A DNA stretch of 64,000 nt from Methanocaldococcus sp. 28A (GTDB lineage Archaea > AGJL01 > Methanococci > Methanococcales > Methanocaldococcaceae), in the NCBI GenBank assembly GCA_049852185.1, contig CP187540.1, one strand, 5' to 3'. Positions 13,454-36,848 of this stretch are shown here, piece by piece. The translations under genes and the position numbers were made by a program. Numbering within the stretch: the first letter of the stretch is position 1; each line of letters begins with the position of its first letter. Under the pieces are notes generated by a model. The model was not told where the DNA came from. It saw only the letters and a program-made list of their open reading frames with translations, and made no database searches.

Positions 13454-13564
13454 TATAGTTGTGTGTAAAACTATCTTAAAAATAAGGTATTAATGAATGC
13501 CTTTCTTATAGAAGGCATCCAAATTGCCATTATAAAAGTTTATTTTATTTTGCACACAACTATA
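13454..13564. repeat. Palindromic intergenic repeat, family A (MJRE/MITE-like)
   Basis: TIR TATAGTTGTGTGTAAAA / TTTTGCACACAACTATA with central ATGCCTT..AAGGCAT hairpin; near-identical copies at 24464, 33222, 36735. Confidence 0.9.
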
Positions 13565-17927: not shown

Positions 17928-18174
17928 ATTAAAATAAGACCGATTCGGTATGGAAACATATTTCATTTCTTCCTCTTCTTTTTTTTTTCTTTTATTAAAA
18001 TAAGACCGATTCGGTATGGAAACTTATTTCGTATGCCACATATAAGGCAATCAACCCGTTAATATTACATTAAAATAAGACCGATTCGGTATGGAAACAT
18101 CACAATATTCAACAATGCATACTTTTTAACAATAATGAACTACAATTAAAATAAGACCGATTCGGTATGGAAAC
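17928..18174 (+). CRISPR. CRISPR array, 4 repeats and 3 spacers, no cas genes in window
   Basis: Identical 30-bp repeat ATTAAAATAAGACCGATTCGGTATGGAAAC at 17928, 17994, 18069, 18145; spacers of 36, 45 and 46 bp; 3' GAAAC gives orientation. Confidence 0.97.
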
Positions 18175-18336
18175 TAAAAATCTTATCTATTTTTTCAAAA
18201 ACTATATATCAATTTTATTAATTTAAATATTTATTAAGTTTAATCTATTTTGGATAAAGGTCTTATATTCTGAAGTAATATACAATACTGAAATAAAATT
18301 TATCAATTTTTAAAAATATTCAACTAAGTGATTATT

Positions 18337-21300
18337 ATGGTTCATGTTGCATGCTCTGAAAACATGAAAAAATATTTTGAAAACATTGTTAGTGAGGTTA
18401 AAAAACTCTATAAAATAGCTGAAGAGTGTAGAAAAAAGGGATTTGACCCTGTAGATGAAGTTGAAATTCCTTTAGCTGCTGATATGGCTGATAGGGTTGA
18501 GGGATTGGTAGGACCTAAAGGTGTGGCTGAGAGAATTAGAGAATTGGTTAAGGAGTTAGGTAAAGAGCCAGCTGCATTGGAGATAGCTAAAGAAATTGTA
18601 GAAGGAAAATTTGGAAATTTTGATAAGGAAAAGAAAGCTGAACAGGCAGTTAGAACTGCATTGGCTGTATTAACTGAGGGGATTGTTGCTGCACCATTAG
18701 AAGGAATTGCAGATGTTAAAATAAAGAAAAACCCAGATGGAAGTGAATATTTAGCTATTTATTATGCAGGACCTATAAGAAGTGCGGGGGGAACAGCTCA
18801 AGCATTATCTGTTTTAGTTGGAGACTTTGTTAGAAAGGCAATGGGTTTGGATAGATATAAGCCAACAGAGGATGAAATTGAGAGATATGTTGAGGAAGTT
18901 GAGTTATACCAATCAGAAGTTGGTAGCTTCCAATACAACCCAACAGCTGATGAAATTAGAACAGCTATAAGAAATATACCAATTGAAATTACTGGAGAGG
19001 CAACTGATGATGTTGAAGTTTCTGGACATAGGGATTTGCCAAGAGTAGAGACAAATCAACTAAGGGGAGGGGCCTTATTAGTTTTGGTTGAGGGAGTTTT
19101 GTTAAAGGCACCAAAGATATTGAGGCACGTTGATAAATTGGGAATAGAGGGATGGGATTGGCTTAAAGATTTAATGAGTAAAAAAGAAGAAAAAAATGAA
19201 AAGAAAGAAGATGAAGAAGAAAATATAGAGGAAGATATAGAGGAAGAGGAGATAAGTGGATACTGGAGAGATGTTAAAATAGAAGCAAACAAAAAGTTTA
19301 TAAGTGAAGTTATCGCAGGAAGGCCGGTATTTGCCCATCCATCAAAGGTTGGAGGGTTTAGATTAAGATATGGTAGAAGTAGAAATACAGGTTTTGCAAC
19401 TCAAGGATTTCATCCAGCTTTAATGTATTTGGTAGATGAATTTATGGCTGTTGGAACTCAGTTAAAGACAGAAAGACCTGGAAAGGCAACATGTGTAGTT
19501 CCAGTTGATAGCATTGAGCCACCAATTGTTAAGCTAAAAAATGGAGACGTTATTAGAGTTGATACAATAGAGAAAGCTATAGAGGTTAGAGATAGAGTTG
19601 AAGAAATTCTATTCTTAGGAGATGTTTTAGTTAATTATGGGGATTTTTTAGAAAACAATCATCCTTTATTGCCAAGCTGTTGGTGTGAAGAGTGGTATGA
19701 AAAAATATTGATAGCTAATAATATAGAGTATGATAAAGAGTTTATAAAAAATCCAAAGCCAGAAGAGGCTGTTAAATTTGCTTTAAAAACAAAAACTCCT
19801 TTACATCCAAGATTTACATACCATTGGCATGATGTTGGCAAGGAAGATATAATCCTATTAAGAAATTGGATATTAAAAGGGAAAGAAGATAATTTTGAAG
19901 GAAAGAATGTTTGGATTGTTGATTTAAAAACAGAGGAAGATAAAAAAGCTAAGAGAATTTTAGAGTTAATTGGTTGCTGTCATTTGGTTAGAGGCAAAAA
20001 AGTTATAATTGAGGAGTATTATCCTTTACTTTACTCATTAGGCTTTGATGTTGAAAATAAAAAGGATTTAATTGATAATATAGACGAAATTTTAAAATCA
20101 GCCAAAAATAGCATGCATCTAATAAACCTATTAGCTCCATTTGAGGTTAGAAGAAACACCTATATATATGTTGGAGCAAGAATGGGAAGACCTGAGAAAG
20201 CTGCTCCAAGAAAGATGAAACCTCCAGTTAATGGTCTCTTTCCTATAGGAAATGCTGGAGGACAAGTTAGATTGATAAATAAGGCTGTTGAAGAAAACAA
20301 TACTGATGATATTGAAGTTTCTTACACAAGATGTCCATATTGTGGAAAAGTTTCATTATATAGAGTTTGTCCATTCTGTGGAAATAGAGTTGAATTAGAT
20401 GAATTTGGAAAAATTAAAGCTCCATTAAAAGATTATTGGTATTCTGCTCTAAAAAGATTGGGAATAAATAAGCCAGGAGATGTTAAGTGCATTAAAGGGA
20501 TGACATCAAAAGAGAAAATTGTTGAACCATTGGAAAAAGCCATATTAAGGGCTATGAATGAAGTTTATGTCTTTAAAGATGGAACATCAAGATTTGATTG
20601 CACAGATGTTCCTATAACTCATTTTAAACCAAACGAGATAAATGTCAGTGTTGAAAAGTTAAGAGAGCTTGGATATGATAAAGATATTTATGGTAATGAG
20701 TTAATTGACGGAGAGCAGGTTGTTGAGCTAAAACCTCAAGATGTAATTATTCCAGAGAGCTGTGCAGAGTATTTTGTCAGAGTAGCTAATTTTATAGATG
20801 AATTGTTAGAGAGATTTTATAAAGTTGAGAAATATTACAATGTAAAAAAGAAAGAGGATTTAATTGGACACTTAGTTATTGGTATGGCTCCACACACCTC
20901 AGCAGGAATGGTTGGAAGAATTATTGGCTATACTAAAGCAAATGTAGGTTATGCACATCCATATTTCCACGCTGCTAAGAGAAGAAATTGCTTCCCAGGA
21001 GATACAAGGATTTTGGTAAATATAGATGGAAATGTTGAGAGAATAACATTAGAGGAGCTATATGAATTGTTTAATGAAAATGATGAGGTATTTGAAAAAG
21101 ATGCATTCATCAGAAAGAAGCCAAAGAGAAATATTAAAGTTTATTCCTTCGATACAGAAAATAGAAAAGTTGTTTTAACAGATATTGAGGAGGTTTTAAA
21201 AATCCCTTCACCAAATCATTTAATAAAGATAACATTAGATGGTAACAGAGAATTTATAACCACCCATGACCATCCAGTTATGGTTTATGAAAATGGAGAG

Positions 21301-23202
21301 TTTATAAAAAAATTGGCAATGGATGTTAAAGAAGGAGATTTAATTCTTATCCCAAAGATTGATTTTGAAGAGAAAGATATAGAAGAGTTTGACTTATTAA
21401 AAGAGTTTTCAAAGGTAGAGTTTAAAGAGCTATGGAGCGTTTTAAGAGTTAGGGGCATTAAAGATTGGATTAAAGAGAATATAAGCAAAGAGTTAATTAG
21501 AGAGTTAAAATTGAATGATTATTTAAGGTATGATACAATACCGTTGGATAAACTAATGATATTATTGGAAAAATCAAATGTAACAATAGATGATGTTCCA
21601 AAGGATTGCTATATAGCAGTTAGAAGAGATAAGGTAAATATTAAAAGAATGATTAAAATTGAGCCGTTATTAAAGCTTATTGGCTACTATCTCTCTGAGG
21701 GATATGCAAGGGAATCAAAGAGTGTATATCAAATAAACTTCTCAGCCCATGAAGAGGAACTTAGAGAGAACATTAAAAAAGCAATAAAAGAGGCATTTGG
21801 AGATGTAAATATCTATGAAAATAAAGAAGATGGAAAAATAACATTATCATCAAGAGTTGTTTATTTATTCTTTACAAAGGTTTTAAAAATTGGTAAAAAG
21901 GCAAAATCAAAGAGAGTTCCAAGTTTTATCTTTAATTTACCAAAGGAAAAAGTAAGATTAATGCTATCAGCATATTTTGATGGAGATGGAACTGCGTTAA
22001 CAACTACTCCAAGAGTTGCAGTATATAGTGCTAATAAAAAATTGTTGGAAGATATAGATTTATTATTGAATAGATTTGGAATTAAAACATACTGGACTGT
22101 AGAAGAAAATGCAAATGAAAGAGATGAAAGCTGTGTAAAGAAATATTATGAAGAGAGAGGAAAAGAAGTTCCAAAATCCATTGTTTATGCTTTAAATATA
22201 GCAGGACATTATTATGACATATTCTTTAAAGAAATTGGTTTTTTCTTGAATAGAAAGCAGGAGATTTATAAATTACATAAAAATAGGATAATAAAAGATG
22301 ATGTGACAGCATATAAATTTGGTTGGATTGTAGGAGTCAAAAAAACTGAACTAATAAAATCTGAGGATAAATTTATCTATTCATTAAATGCGAAGAAGTA
22401 TCACAATGTAATAATAAATGAAAATATTCAAACATATCAATGTGATGGCGACGAAGATGCCTTCTTTTTGCTTTTAGACGCATTTTTGAACTTTTCTAAG
22501 AAATTCCTGCCTGATAAAAGAGGAGGGCAAATGGACGCTCCATTAGTATTAACAACCATATTGGACCCAAAGGAAGTGGATGGAGAAGTTCATAATATGG
22601 ATGTTGTTTGGAGTTATCCATTAGAGTTTTATGAAAAAACATTAGAAATGCCTTCACCAAAAGAAGTTAAAGAATTAATAGAGACAGTAGAGGATAGATT
22701 AGGAAAACCAGAGCAGTATGAGGGATTAGGCTATACTCATGAAACAAGTAGAATTGATTTAGGACCAAAAGTTTGTGCATATAAAACCTTAGGTTCAATG
22801 CTTGAAAAAACAAATGCTCAACTTTCAGTAGCTAAAAAGATTAGAGCAACAGATGAGAGAGATGTTGCTGAGAAGGTCATACAATCTCACTTCATACCAG
22901 ATTTAATTGGAAATTTAAGAGCTTTCTCAAGACAAGCGGTAAGATGTAAATGTGGGGCTAAGTATAGAAGAATTCCTTTAAGAGGAGTTTGTCCAAAGTG
23001 TGGTTCTAAGTTAATATTAACTGTATCAAAAGGAGCTGTTGAAAAGTATATGGATGTTGCAGAGAAGATGGCTGAGGAATACAATGTAAATGATTATATA
23101 AAACAAAGATTAAAAATTATTAGAGAGGGAATAAATTCAATATTTGAAAATGATAAAAGTAAGCAAGTTAAATTAAGTGATTTCTTTAAAATAAATTCTT
23201 AA
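18337..23202 (+). CDS. polC: DNA polymerase II (PolD) large subunit DP2, intein-containing
   Basis: [46 protein letters not shown]-terminal Zn finger. Confidence 0.97.
20989..22440 (+). mobile_element. Intein with LAGLIDADG homing endonuclease in DP2 (484 aa)
   Basis: Splits KRRN|CDGDED; starts CFPGDT, block B TTHDHP, LAGLIDADG blocks LIGYYLSEG and LSAYFDGDG, ends NENIQTYQ followed by Cys. Confidence 0.93.
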
Positions 23203-23243: not shown

Positions 23244-24122
23244 ATGGAAGTAATTCCATTAGCATCTGAAAGCTTAGGAGTTAGGTCATTGGCAACCTAT
23301 GTTAAAACAAAGGATGTGGGGATTTTAATAGACCCTGGTGTTGCTTTAGCCCCAGATAGATTTGGTTTAAAACCAAATGATATAGAATTTAAAAAATTAA
23401 AAGAACTGAGAAATAAAATCAATGAGTATGCAAAAAAAAGTGATATTATAATTATTTCTCATTATCATTACGACCATTATACACCATTTTTTGATGACAT
23501 ATACTTAGAGTCAAAGGATTATGCCAAAGAACTATACAAGAACAAAATATTACTAATAAAGCATCCAACTGAATTTATAAATAAAAGTCAGATGGAGAGA
23601 GCAAAAAAATTTTTGGAACATGTTAAAAATATTGCAAAAAAGATAGAATTTGCAGACAACAAAACATTTAAATTTGGAAAGACAGAGATAAAATTTTCCC
23701 CACCATTTCCACATGGAAGAGATAACAAGTTAGGATATGTTTTAATAACAACAATTAAAGAAGGTAATTTTAAGTTTATGCACACTTCAGACACTCAAGG
23801 AATATTATTTGATGAGATTAGGGATTATATAATTAAAGAAAAACCAAATCTAATACTTATAGGAGGTCCTCCTACATATTTAATGCATAGATACGGAAAA
23901 AAGAACTTAGAAAAAACCAACGAAAATTTAAAATATATAGTGGAAAATACTGGAGCTGAGATTATAATTGACCATCACTTATTAAGAGATAAAAAGTTTA
24001 GAGAAAAGATAAATATTGATTTCAAAACAGTTGCTGAGTTTTTAGGAGAAAAGAATCTGTTATTGGAAGCATATAGAAAAGAGATTAAGCATGGAAAATG
24101 TTTAGAGGAATTATTTAAATAA
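23244..24122 (+). CDS. Metallo-beta-lactamase fold hydrolase (UPF0282-like)
   Basis: ESLGVRS, ISHYHYDH, HTSDTQG, IDHHLLRD. Confidence 0.85.
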   Translation: MEVIPLASESLGVRSLATYVKTKDVGILIDPGVALAPDRFGLKPNDIEFKKLKELRNKINEYAKKSDIIIISHYHYDHYTPFFDDIYLESKDYAKELYKNKILLIKHPTEFINKSQMERAKKFLEHVKNIAKKIEFADNKTFKFGKTEIKFSPPFPHGRDNKLGYVLITTIKEGNFKFMHTSDTQGILFDEIRDYIIKEKPNLILIGGPPTYLMHRYGKKNLEKTNENLKYIVENTGAEIIIDHHLLRDKKFREKINIDFKTVAEFLGEKNLLLEAYRKEIKHGKCLEELFK

Positions 24123-24156
24123 TTCATAAAAATATATAAAATTTTGAAGAAATAAA

Positions 24157-24345
24157 GCCTCAATGATGAAAGTTACCGTTCTGGTTATCCGCTACTTTTG
24201 GAACAATTGAAACAATTGTAGCAGATAACCTTCCAGCCTCCTAATTTCATCGGCTGGCAATCGGGGGGAACGGGAACTCCCCACATCTTCGGATTAATAG
24301 CAGTCCCATTCGGGCTTAGTTTCCCCCACATATCGGGACCGCTAT
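24157..24345 (-). ncRNA. Candidate structured ncRNA with K-loop and 3' tail antisense to the neighbouring C/D sRNA
   Basis: GC-rich island. Stems AUAGCGGUCCC/GGGACUGCUAU, CCAGCC-GAUGA..GA-GGCUGG and GGUUAUCUGCUAC/GUAGCGGAUAACC; mismatches resolve to G-U only on the minus strand; TTTAAATA box starts 29 nt upstream. Confidence 0.6.
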
Positions 24346-24387
24346 ATTACAATCTTGTGGTTGTAGTATTTAAAATTTGTTGTAATC

Positions 24388-24460
24388 AATGCCTCGATGA
24401 TGAAAGTTACCCCCACCGACCTTTTTGGGATGAAGAAATCGGCACTGACTGAGAGGCATT
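24388..24460 (+). ncRNA. Box C/D methylation guide sRNA
   Basis: 8-bp terminal stem AAUGCCUC/GAGGCAUU, box C AUGAUGA (24397), D' CCGA (24416), C'-like GGGAUGA (24427), box D CUGA (24449). Confidence 0.85.
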
Positions 24461-24463
24461 ATT

Positions 24464-24574
24464 TATAGTTGTGTGTAAAATAAAATAAACTTTTATAATG
24501 GCAATTTGAATGCCTTCCATAAGGAAGACATTCACTAATTCCTTATTTTTAAGATAGTTTTGCACACAACTATA
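24464..24574. repeat. Palindromic intergenic repeat, family A
   Basis: Same TIRs as the 13454 copy, opposite orientation. Confidence 0.9.
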
Positions 24575-24604
24575 GTCTATATTAATTCTATGTAAGTGAT
24601 TTTT

Positions 24605-25951
24605 ATGTTTGTAGATGAGATTATAAACAATTTAAAAGAAAATGAATTCCTAAATACTTCTCTTTTGACTAAAAGTAATAAAAATAGATTATACTATGCT
24701 GTAAAACAGCCAGATGGGAATATAAAAGTTGTTTTGCCTTTTGTTTTTGAAAATAAAAATTTTTTAAAACTTTCTGAATATGGAAATGGAATAGAAGGAG
24801 CTACGCAGAGGGTTATTGAAGAAATAAAAAAAGAAATAATTAATAAAAAGAGATTTTTACCATTAGCAGGATATTTTGGTAGAATATATAAAGCTTTGTA
24901 TGAACCATTAACTGTAGTGAATTGTGATTTAAATTTGGGATATGATTTGTGGAGAGCTGACAAATATAACTATATTAAAGGAAATAAGATGTATCTAATG
25001 CTCAGAATGATTTTTAAAGAAAAAGATGCTAAAGAAATTGCTAAACAAATCAATGCGCTTTGTAATAACTTAGATAAATTTATTAAAAACATTTCAATTG
25101 ATTTATTAATTGATGAAGCTAAAAATATAATAAATCAAAAATATCTTAGGGATAAATTGGATGAACTTGGTTTAGTTTGCTTTATTGCAAATAATTCAAA
25201 GCCAGCAAGAAAATATACTGATGTTAGAAGGCATTACAGAATAGCAGGACCTAAGGAAATAAATATTCCATTTGAATGCCCAGAAGAACTTGAACCAATA
25301 GAGATAAAGCTTAAATATGGTAAGAAAATTAAAGGATTGGGTATAAAAAAGAAAGAAATATTTATAATTACTGGAAGAAATGCTCAAGGAAAAACAACTC
25401 TTTTGCAGGCAATAGATAGTGGTAGAGATGACCACTTAATTGGAGATGGGAGAGAGTTCATTATAACTACTAAAAGCCTATCCAGGGCATCAACTGGGAG
25501 TATGGAAATGAATGGACAAGATATAAGTATGTTTTTCCAAAAACTACCTCCAGGAATTAAAGGAACTCCAAAAGCTGTTTATGGAACTGCCTCAGGCTCA
25601 ATGTATATGGCTTACCAAATACAAAGGTCTATAAAAAATAAAACTAAGCTTATTTTGATAGATGAAGACAACTCAGCTGTAAATTTATTAGTTAGTGGTG
25701 TTTTAAGTAAGTGGTTTGAGGGAGTTAAGTCACTATCTGAAATAATTATAGAAAATAGAGAAAAACTTGGAGATAGCTCTTTTATTATAGTAACAAGTTC
25801 GTTGGATTTATTAACTGCTTTGGGGGATAGGGCAATTTACTTAGAAAACCATAAAGCTAAATATCTTGATTTAAATTATTTTAGAAAAGAGCTTGGGAAA
25901 TATTACTTAGAGTTAGCATCTATGTTATTGTATGGAAAATTTTCTAAATAG
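24605..25951 (+). CDS. P-loop ATPase (ABC-class ATPase-like, uncharacterised)
   Basis: Walker A GRNAQGKTT, GDGREF, TASGS, Walker B ILIDED. Confidence 0.8.
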   Translation: MFVDEIINNLKENEFLNTSLLTKSNKNRLYYAVKQPDGNIKVVLPFVFENKNFLKLSEYGNGIEGATQRVIEEIKKEIINKKRFLPLAGYFGRIYKALYEPLTVVNCDLNLGYDLWRADKYNYIKGNKMYLMLRMIFKEKDAKEIAKQINALCNNLDKFIKNISIDLLIDEAKNIINQKYLRDKLDELGLVCFIANNSKPARKYTDVRRHYRIAGPKEINIPFECPEELEPIEIKLKYGKKIKGLGIKKKEIFIITGRNAQGKTTLLQAIDSGRDDHLIGDGREFIITTKSLSRASTGSMEMNGQDISMFFQKLPPGIKGTPKAVYGTASGSMYMAYQIQRSIKNKTKLILIDEDNSAVNLLVSGVLSKWFEGVKSLSEIIIENREKLGDSSFIIVTSSLDLLTALGDRAIYLENHKAKYLDLNYFRKELGKYYLELASMLLYGKFSK

Positions 25952-33221: not shown

Positions 33222-33335
33222 TATAGTTGTGTGCAAAATAAAATAAACTTTTATAAGGACAATTTGAATGCCTTCCTTATGGAAGGCATTCTTTAGTTCC
33301 TTATTTTATTTAAGATAGTTTTGCACACAACTATA
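33222..33335. repeat. Palindromic intergenic repeat, family A
   Basis: TIR TATAGTTGTGTGCAAAA / TTTTGCACACAACTATA; inner GAATGCCTTCC-TTAT-GGAAGGCATTC. Confidence 0.92.
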
Positions 33336-36734: not shown

Positions 36735-36848
36735 TATAGTTGTGTGCAAAACTATCTTAAATAAAATAAGGAATTAGTGAATGCCTTCCATAAGGAAGGC
36801 ATTCAAATTGTCCTTATAAAAGTTTATTTTATTTTGCACACAACTATA
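36735..36848. repeat. Palindromic intergenic repeat, family A
   Basis: Near reverse complement of the 33222 copy. Confidence 0.92.

Follow-up and report, generated by a model that had tools for sequence, protein, structure and literature searches.

Does the small RNA gene at this locus have an antisense partner that evolved to control it, or does the partner have another origin? The 64,000-nucleotide stretch of the Methanocaldococcus sp. 28A genome analyzed here (the window; contig CP187540.1; genome G000 below) carries a box C/D small RNA (sRNA) gene at 24391–24457, preceded by a GC-rich block whose minus strand would give a folded RNA with a tail complementary to the 5′ end of the sRNA. A first-pass annotation of the locus had proposed that this minus-strand RNA is a dedicated anti-guide. 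We conclude that the segment 24176–24378 (minus strand) is very probably a transposase-less remnant of a TnpB-only IS200/IS605 element, similar to the palindrome-associated transposable elements (PATEs), lying in the sRNA gene, and that the antisense tail is a by-product. Still recognizable in this remnant are a TATA box, residual tnpB 3′ coding sequence, an omega-RNA scaffold, and the transposon right end.

Three observations at the locus are central. In this lineage and no other, the element sits within the 5′ part of a conserved box C/D sRNA gene; its right end adjoins a displaced copy of the first 19–21 nt of that gene; and a second copy of the 21-mer, joined to the rest of the gene, keeps the sRNA intact. 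The features are as follows.

24133–24141, plus strand: ancestral sRNA TATA box, now upstream of the displaced 5′ fragment only.
24157–24177, plus strand: displaced sRNA 5′ fragment, comprising half of the stem, box C, and 8 nt from the start of the D′ guide; a 20/21 match to 24391–24411.
24176–24290, minus strand: core of the omega-RNA-like scaffold, whose RNA 3′ end (...CCAGAACGG, at 24176) is the transposon right end.
24183–24230, minus strand: long subterminal right-end hairpin, with covariation.
24233–24257, minus strand: kink-loop-like (K-loop-like) hairpin, with covariation.
24262–24283, minus strand: helix 1, a G-rich hairpin, with covariation.
24297–24345, minus strand: 5′ hairpin of the element RNA, a predicted fold; in full-length elements, a tnpB zinc-finger coding relic.
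24368–24376, minus strand: element TATA box TTTTAAATA, common to other family copies, with a predicted RNA start near 24345–24354.
24379–24390, no strand assigned: 12-nt spacer between the element remnant and the intact sRNA, differing from the ancestral spacer at 24145–24156.
24391–24457, plus strand: intact box C/D sRNA, recognized by its boxes, stems, conservation, and 23S pairing.
24466–24574, no strand assigned: miniature inverted-repeat transposable element (MITE) of 109 bp with 15-nt terminal inverted repeats and a TA target duplication, unrelated to the element.

The two 21-mers lie on the plus strand at 24157–24177 and 24391–24411 and are identical at 20 of 21 positions, with a single A versus G difference. 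When the window was scanned with up to 3 mismatches allowed, exactly these two sites were found, and as a control, none of 100 dinucleotide-preserving shuffles reached two matches. The repeat described in the first-pass annotation was therefore confirmed, and the sequence letters likewise agree with its statement that the sole mismatch becomes a G–U pair in the duplex; the proposed pairing of the sRNA 5′ end with the minus-strand tail spans 21 nt with one G–U. Read on the minus strand, 24157–24177 occupies the flank or "guide" position of the element RNA and adjoins the conserved right end of the family, with the two bases at 24176–24177 (CC) assignable either to the sRNA fragment or to the element right end. 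Positions 24150–24350 form a GC-rich island (up to 54% G+C) in surrounding DNA of ∼20–30% G+C, and the fold computed for 24157–24350 was −74.1 kcal/mol (z = −4.77) on the minus strand and −60.3 kcal/mol (z = −3.20) on the plus strand.

The interrupted gene is a genuine box C/D sRNA, as the first-pass annotation had claimed, since its core is present in all 31 Methanococcales genomes used for DNA and 15-mer searches and both of its guides pair with 23S rRNA. Using the known box consensus sequences of C/D sRNAs, we read the box and stem positions from the window letters: a 5′ stem (24391–24395), box C (24397–24403), the D′ guide (24404–24415), box D′ (CCGA, 24416–24419), a C′-like box matching at 6 of 7 positions (∼24427–24433), the D guide (24437–24448), box D (CUGA, 24449–24452), and a 3′ stem (24453–24457); both guides are 12 nt long. 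The DNA search found the sRNA as a single copy in 16 of 16 genomes of the same genus and in 8 of 14 genomes of the sister family, and the 15-mer comprising box C and the start of the guide was found with at most one mismatch in 31/31 genomes. After the rRNA genes were located, the D′ guide could be paired with 23S rRNA positions 2012–2021 (gene numbering) by 10 Watson–Crick pairs and the D guide with the 1958–1968 region at 10 of 11 positions. No perfect rRNA match of 11–12 nt to the guides was found; the targets appear at 10 nt or with G–U pairs allowed. Thus, 24391–24457 shares with archaeal box C/D sRNAs the box order, the 12-nt guides, the terminal stem, and two nearby 23S targets; it differs in reaching no Rfam family cut-off, the best match being sR12 at 20.3 bits versus 38 (24000–24650, E ≤ 10).

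Only two vent metatranscriptome assemblies (runs X1 and X2) had sequence in common with the region; they contain the sRNA ortholog of a relative, covering the equivalent of 24394–24458. These contigs wrap around, with the 3′ end joined to the 5′ end via 6 letters, at a depth of 447 in one run. Archaeal C/D sRNAs other than this one are known in circularly permuted forms, as in the contigs of the relative. The contigs suggest a circular or permuted sRNA whose 5′ end is equivalent to 24391, and suggest that such a form of the ortholog is abundant in vent communities; they derive from another organism and are uninformative on the element.

The GC-rich block belongs to a dispersed repeat family. 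With 24140–24470 as the query, the repeat at 24172–24378 was found at seven further places in G000 (69–92% identity, E ≤ 7e-8), giving 8 copies in this genome, each between listed long reading frames. The DNA search placed the family in 10 of the 31 genomes. A covariance model (R1), built on the 115-nt core of the family and run on 40 Methanococcales genomes, placed it in 13 of them, with 52 hits and up to 8 per genome, and scored the window copy (G000:C1:216176–216290, minus strand) at 139.7 bits. The short copies measure ∼160–190 nt plus the left end and have no transposase open reading frame (ORF); what they retain is a left-end block and a promoter, along with part of the tnpB 3′ coding region and the right end. 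In alignments, the copies share a sharp end, ...CCAGAACGG in the RNA sense, which falls at window position 24176, with unrelated sequence beyond it: among the 27 copies carrying the right end, the next 25 nt were different in every one. The box TTTTAAATA precedes the RNA start by 14–29 nt in the window copy as well as in L002, L004, L030, L032, and L049. On the opposite side, the left-end block (GCTGTTTCC...) is present in at least 16 of the 26 copies listed, and the homology of the window copy to the family ends at 24378, just past its TATA box.

These copies make up an orphan family of guide-RNA scaffolds spanning Methanocaldococcus, Methanotorris, and a third genus (g2), and no Rfam family matched it. 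Scanned whole at gathering thresholds, the window gave four CRISPR repeats only; 24000–24650 at E ≤ 10 gave weak C/D-box matches on the sRNA and none on the element; and the seven other family copies gave zero Rfam hits. A CRISPR-leader origin for the repeat was ruled out, as no CRISPR repeats were found near the other copies.

Two full-length members connect the family to TnpB. At L034 in genome G019, a 404-aa TnpB ORF runs from 403 to 1617, the family core occupies 1513–1626, and the ...CCAGAACGG end falls 9 nt past the stop codon. At L037 in G001, a genome of the same genus as the window, the TnpB ORF (408 aa) lies at 1437–2663 on the minus strand with the right end at 1406, and its product is 84% identical to the L034 protein. 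Both proteins carry the Cas12f1-like TNB domain (PF07282; E = 1.2e-21 for L034 and 4.5e-22 for L037); the L034 protein matched OrfB_IS605 weakly, at 25.3 bits, under the 30.5 cut-off. The homolog of the 5′ hairpin lies in L034 at 1373–1420, inside the tnpB ORF and across its first CxxC motif, and in the window the minus-strand translation of 24188–24304 is 67% identical to TnpB residues 366–404 over 39 aa. Because the repeat core overlaps the tnpB 3′ end and stops at the right end, we regard the family as PATE-like IS200/IS605 derivatives with an omega-RNA scaffold.

The borders of the full-length element could be mapped in G001. In comparison with G015, G006, G008, and G000, flank homology ends at a GG just ahead of GCTGTTTCC and returns on the other side at the last one or two bases of ...AACGG, which defines an element of 1319 bp; ∼90 nt of the target are missing at this site. 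From this, we infer 3′ GG as the transposon-associated motif (TAM). The G001 copy lies within a reading frame where, by eye, G000 reads like a nucleotidyltransferase motif. The two genomes whose TnpB proteins are 84% identical are assigned to separate families (f1 and f2), a sign of recent horizontal spread. A Y1 TnpA frame is present in G001 and G019, and there is one in G000.

One further family copy, L054 (G020:C1, ∼200499–200611), joins the family core directly to the start of an ORF that reads, by eye, like a MerR-type helix-turn-helix; it looks like a deletion derivative of an element with another transposase gene. An IS607-type origin of the family was suggested by this MerR-like start and was not adopted.

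The closest relative of the window genome, G011 (locus L010), retains the uninterrupted site. Its flanks are 93–96% identical to those of the window, and it reads from the stop codon of the metallo-beta-lactamase-fold (MBL-fold) gene through a TATA box and the 21-mer (A variant) into the sRNA body without interruption; it has no family copy. From the MBL-fold stop codon to 24177, A variant included, the window equals the G011 sequence save for one base in an A-run. The window exceeds G011 by 234 bases, 24178–24411, which consist of the element remnant, the 12-nt spacer, and the second 21-mer (G variant). Among the 31 genomes, the exact 15-mer core occurs twice in G000 only, and when match coordinates were compared, no other genome had an element copy near its sRNA. 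The first-pass annotation had named the upstream 21-mer in related genomes as something to check; it was absent beside the sRNA in every relative examined.

The junction itself is what an ordinary insertion would leave. A G-run (RNA sense) precedes the right-end junction in the ancestral sequence, like the GG ahead of the G001 element, and this G-run and the exact right-end junction fit a normal insertion that split the sRNA within its D′ guide. On the opposite side, the missing left end is replaced by the spacer and the intact sRNA 5′ end. We propose that insertion of the element took place directly 3′ of a GG within the D′ guide, splitting the sRNA gene in a manner matching the single mapped full-length copy, and that a later rearrangement would have swapped the left part of the element for an intact sRNA 5′ end, 23 nt from the element TATA box. 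A secondary recombination that restored the sRNA gene is the account we favor, and it possibly involved DNA from another strain and an exchange at two similar TATA boxes. Read on the plus strand, the element TATA box (TATTTAAAA) lies 23 nt ahead of the sRNA 5′ end, in line with the 24 nt of the ancestral promoter. As alternatives, the 19–21-nt duplication could stem from unequal exchange between two nearby insertions, or G011 could have lost the insert by recombination between the repeats. An integrase or attachment-site origin of the duplication was ruled out, since a scan of the copies' neighbors found housekeeping genes and no integrase.

The predicted element RNA is structured, and the structure belongs to the minus strand. 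For 23 aligned cores and 22 pairs in three helices, 97.3% of cells were paired, versus 26–55% in controls in which the partners were slid by 1–3 columns. Seven pairs were altered on both sides, and the observed values were reached by 0–2 of 500 shuffles; these shuffle figures overstate the support because the 23 cores are related, and the slid controls give a fairer measure. One pair is U–G in 22 of 23 sequences and would be a C–A mismatch on the opposite strand, and therefore the scaffold structure fits the window minus strand only. In these respects, the structured minus-strand RNA with its own TATA box predicted by the first-pass annotation holds up at the sequence level: the TATA box is common to the copies and the covariation is strand-specific.

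The hairpin at 24233–24257 (minus strand) recurs in 22 other copies as a 6-bp stem followed by RAU-GA...GA, with five cells in which both sides of one stem pair are changed; the 3′ GA is AA in 4 of 23 copies. Its loop has a G-A/G-A arrangement that resembles a K-loop motif. A single literature search on TnpB with L7Ae and kink-turns turned up, among the papers listed, none linking TnpB RNAs to L7Ae or the K-loop, and an L7Ae RNA immunoprecipitation sequencing paper (PMC5539422) contains no transposase terms. Should the K-loop prove genuine, TnpB guide RNAs would be connected to the L7Ae machinery of archaea. The conservation of this hairpin may come partly from coding, since the stretch encodes the TnpB tail in full-length elements.

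The closest known systems include the ISDra2-type TnpB omega-RNA systems. Like their RNAs, the family scaffold overlaps the tnpB 3′ end, stops at the right end with variable flank next, and has a conserved fold with a subterminal right-end hairpin. It differs in that the window copy stands alone with its own TATA box, the cognate tnpB being absent from G000, and in that the window scaffold has a K-loop-like hairpin and matches no Rfam family. The missing cognate TnpB makes the window copy an orphan rather than an RNA of another kind. IS1341-type tnpB genes in archaea have noncoding RNAs at their 3′ ends (sotRNAs; PMC4615843), and the TnpB guide is transcribed from the DNA just past the right end (PMC10055086). 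On the matter of a match to an already described RNA, which the first-pass annotation had also raised, the structured RNA belongs to the TnpB omega-RNA or right-end RNA class, and its family is not in Rfam.

As to the short copies, PMC3119063 describes haloarchaeal PATEs as transposase-free and derived from IS605-type elements, one of them keeping C-terminal coding remains. The window family resembles them in being short, multi-copy, and transposase-free, with a near-terminal palindrome and tnpB C-terminal remains, and in deriving from IS605-type elements by internal deletion; it differs in belonging to thermophilic Methanococcales and in its unrelated sequence. PATEs are reported there without target duplications, whereas the window copy, its left end missing, stands between the two halves of a 19–21-nt repeat, which points to a secondary rearrangement at the locus.

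HgcC RNA (RF00062) of Methanocaldococcus jannaschii is likewise a GC-rich small RNA family in an AT-rich hyperthermophile, and a right-end-like tetraloop is noted for it in PMC4615843. Identity with HgcC was ruled out, with no hit at E ≤ 10 in 24000–24650; on G000 as a whole, the HgcC model gave six weak hits (≤24.8 bits versus a cut-off of 50), none at a family copy. The weakest listed hit (G000:C1:829308–829377, minus strand; 14.1 bits, E 0.59) is located immediately downstream of a tnpB-like frame, which fits the published hint (PMC4615843) that HgcC is related to TnpB right-end RNAs.

Taken with these parallels, the antisense tail has a simple explanation. By analogy with characterized TnpB systems, the element RNA would start ∼25 nt downstream of its TATA box, cross the scaffold, and continue into the flank as its "guide," with the scaffold acting as an omega-RNA. 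The flank beyond the right end is the displaced sRNA 5′ fragment, which is why the tail is complementary to the 5′ end of the sRNA; this match would then follow from the landing site and not from an evolved regulatory design. As G000 has no cognate TnpB, the element RNA is most likely an orphan, and if it did pair with the sRNA or a precursor of it, that would be incidental. The window copy itself, judged from its sequence, is most likely immobile, an orphan RNA gene or a relic. For annotation, the locus cautions that GC-rich "mystery RNAs" with their own TATA boxes in AT-rich hyperthermophiles can be the tails of TnpB insertion sequences, whose 3′ ends always look antisense to the insertion target. 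It also offers a natural example of a mobile element splitting a methylation-guide gene that survives through a short duplication.

Several points weigh against this interpretation. The window copy lacks the family left end (GCTGTTTCC...), and it is the only one of the 27 copies whose flank recurs upstream, the other 26 showing no repeat. As described in PMC10055086, the target is not duplicated when IS200/IS605 elements insert, and the TAM plus the right-end flank make up the donor joint. The transposition mechanism thus does not explain the duplication, and an extra, unobserved rearrangement must be assumed. Nor does a simple, recent in situ duplication explain the second copy, since 24133–24177 and 24367–24411 align at 82.6% over 46 columns, in contrast to 93–96% identity between G000 and G011 elsewhere; outside the 21-mer, the similarity of the two regions is mostly the TATA box. 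Sources for the spacer at 24379–24390 and for the second promoter were sought in the 31 genomes, with no match above chance. The TAM has as its basis one mapped border plus conservation, and two attempts to find empty sites for Methanotorris copies met flanks too diverged. RNA data for this organism were sought and none were found, so that the minus-strand RNA and its ends are predictions, and for the omega-RNA function of the scaffold the argument is wholly one of analogy.

The alternative that survives best, improbable as it is, holds that the element RNA is still an active guide with which a paralogous TnpB cuts DNA matching the 19-nt flank, for example the working sRNA copy or an incoming uninterrupted allele, in a form of homing or exclusion. 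G000 does contain several long open TnpB-like frames along with its Y1 TnpA; the 3′ region of one TnpB paralog has short motifs in common with the scaffold; and the working sRNA copy differs from the flank at one position and follows a G-run resembling the inferred GG target. However, the best TnpB-like frame in G000 is only 36% identical to the cognate TnpB, BLAST of the scaffold against the 3′ regions of the G000 tnpB loci returned no similarity at E < 0.05, and chromosomal self-targeting would be harmful.

Quite improbable too is a co-opted relic, in which the orphan transcript would bind L7Ae through its K-loop-like hairpin and pair with the sRNA or its precursor, becoming a modulator of small ribonucleoprotein (sRNP) assembly and thereby of two 23S methylations. 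If that were true, archaeal TnpB guide RNAs more broadly would use the host kink-turn protein as a cofactor.

We consider it very unlikely that the biologically relevant product is instead a plus-strand precursor started at the TATA box at 24133, in which two box C/stem halves compete for one box D, the outcome being the normal sRNA or else a long C/D RNA that carries a 234-nt insert. Comparison with G011 showed an intact ancestral promoter, and read-through is plausible, there being no T-run longer than 4 on the plus strand of the element. Against this, the arrangement is strain-specific, which would make any competition incidental; the element TATA box, at its distance of 23 nt from 24391, could start the sRNA directly; and the transcript, like its minus-strand counterpart, is a prediction.

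It is equally unlikely that the sRNA 5′ end and promoter were duplicated first, or independently, and that the element inserted between the copies afterwards. The 46-column alignment described above, TATA-like sequence included, could be read this way, but the right end and the displaced copy meet precisely at the family boundary, a duplicated 5′ end lacking the element was seen in no relative, and the extra similarity is mostly a TATA box that the element family also carries.

Least probable of all is the dedicated anti-guide or chaperone of the first-pass annotation, pairing with the terminal stem, box C, and D′ guide to control sRNP assembly and 23S methylations: the 21-nt pairing is real, the promoter is plausible, the fold is stable, and the K-loop-like hairpin could bring L7Ae to the same particle, but the duplicated core exists in 1/31 genomes while the sRNA is in 31/31, the site is empty in the closest relative, the RNA belongs to a set of 8 dispersed copies, no two with the same tail, and the tail is perfectly complementary to the displaced fragment and forms G–U with the working sRNA, as expected of an insertion by-product. 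The first-pass annotation was thus right about the anatomy (the repeat, the sRNA, and the structured minus-strand RNA), and its anti-guide function is not supported, given a strain-specific arrangement and a known class of RNA.

A separate small element also occurs in this genome and beside orthologs of the sRNA. This hairpin element of ∼75 nt (CCATAGGGC..CCCTATTGG, then a second hairpin) is present at 13 places in G000 and was also noted at L002:1669–1725, and at L012 and L014 it lies just 3′ of the sRNA. Long imperfect duplications of gene ends border its insertions: at L002, 55 bp of the 3′ end of a POR-family gene are duplicated, with several third-codon differences and one amino acid difference, and in G010 and G008, ∼31 bp of the 3′ end of the same sRNA are duplicated. 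In G010 and G008, the hairpin insert together with the duplicated box D end might even constitute a new C/D-like gene. The family copy at L002 sits inside this separate element, to which the 55-bp duplication there belongs, and long duplications as a general trait of the TnpB-derived family were ruled out, a flank repeat being found in 1/27 copies.

At another family copy, L053 (G016:C1, ∼124800), the DNA beyond the right end looks like the 3′ region of another tnpB gene in G000 (L067:2700–2800, ..CCGTTCAGCC..GAAGTCCAATGAAC..), and one element seems to have landed there in the RNA region of another TnpB element.

The MITE at 24466–24574 is a second strain-specific insertion in the same spacer, and G011 has no MITE there. 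It was found at 124 places in the genome, 84 of them covering at least 95 of the 109 nt, and further copies within the window lie at 13454–13562, 33222–33335, and 36735–36848. Elsewhere in the window, a four-repeat CRISPR array (Rfam CRISPR-DR13; 17928–18174) is found immediately upstream of the DNA polymerase D large-subunit gene (18328–23202), which carries an intein with a LAGLIDADG domain.

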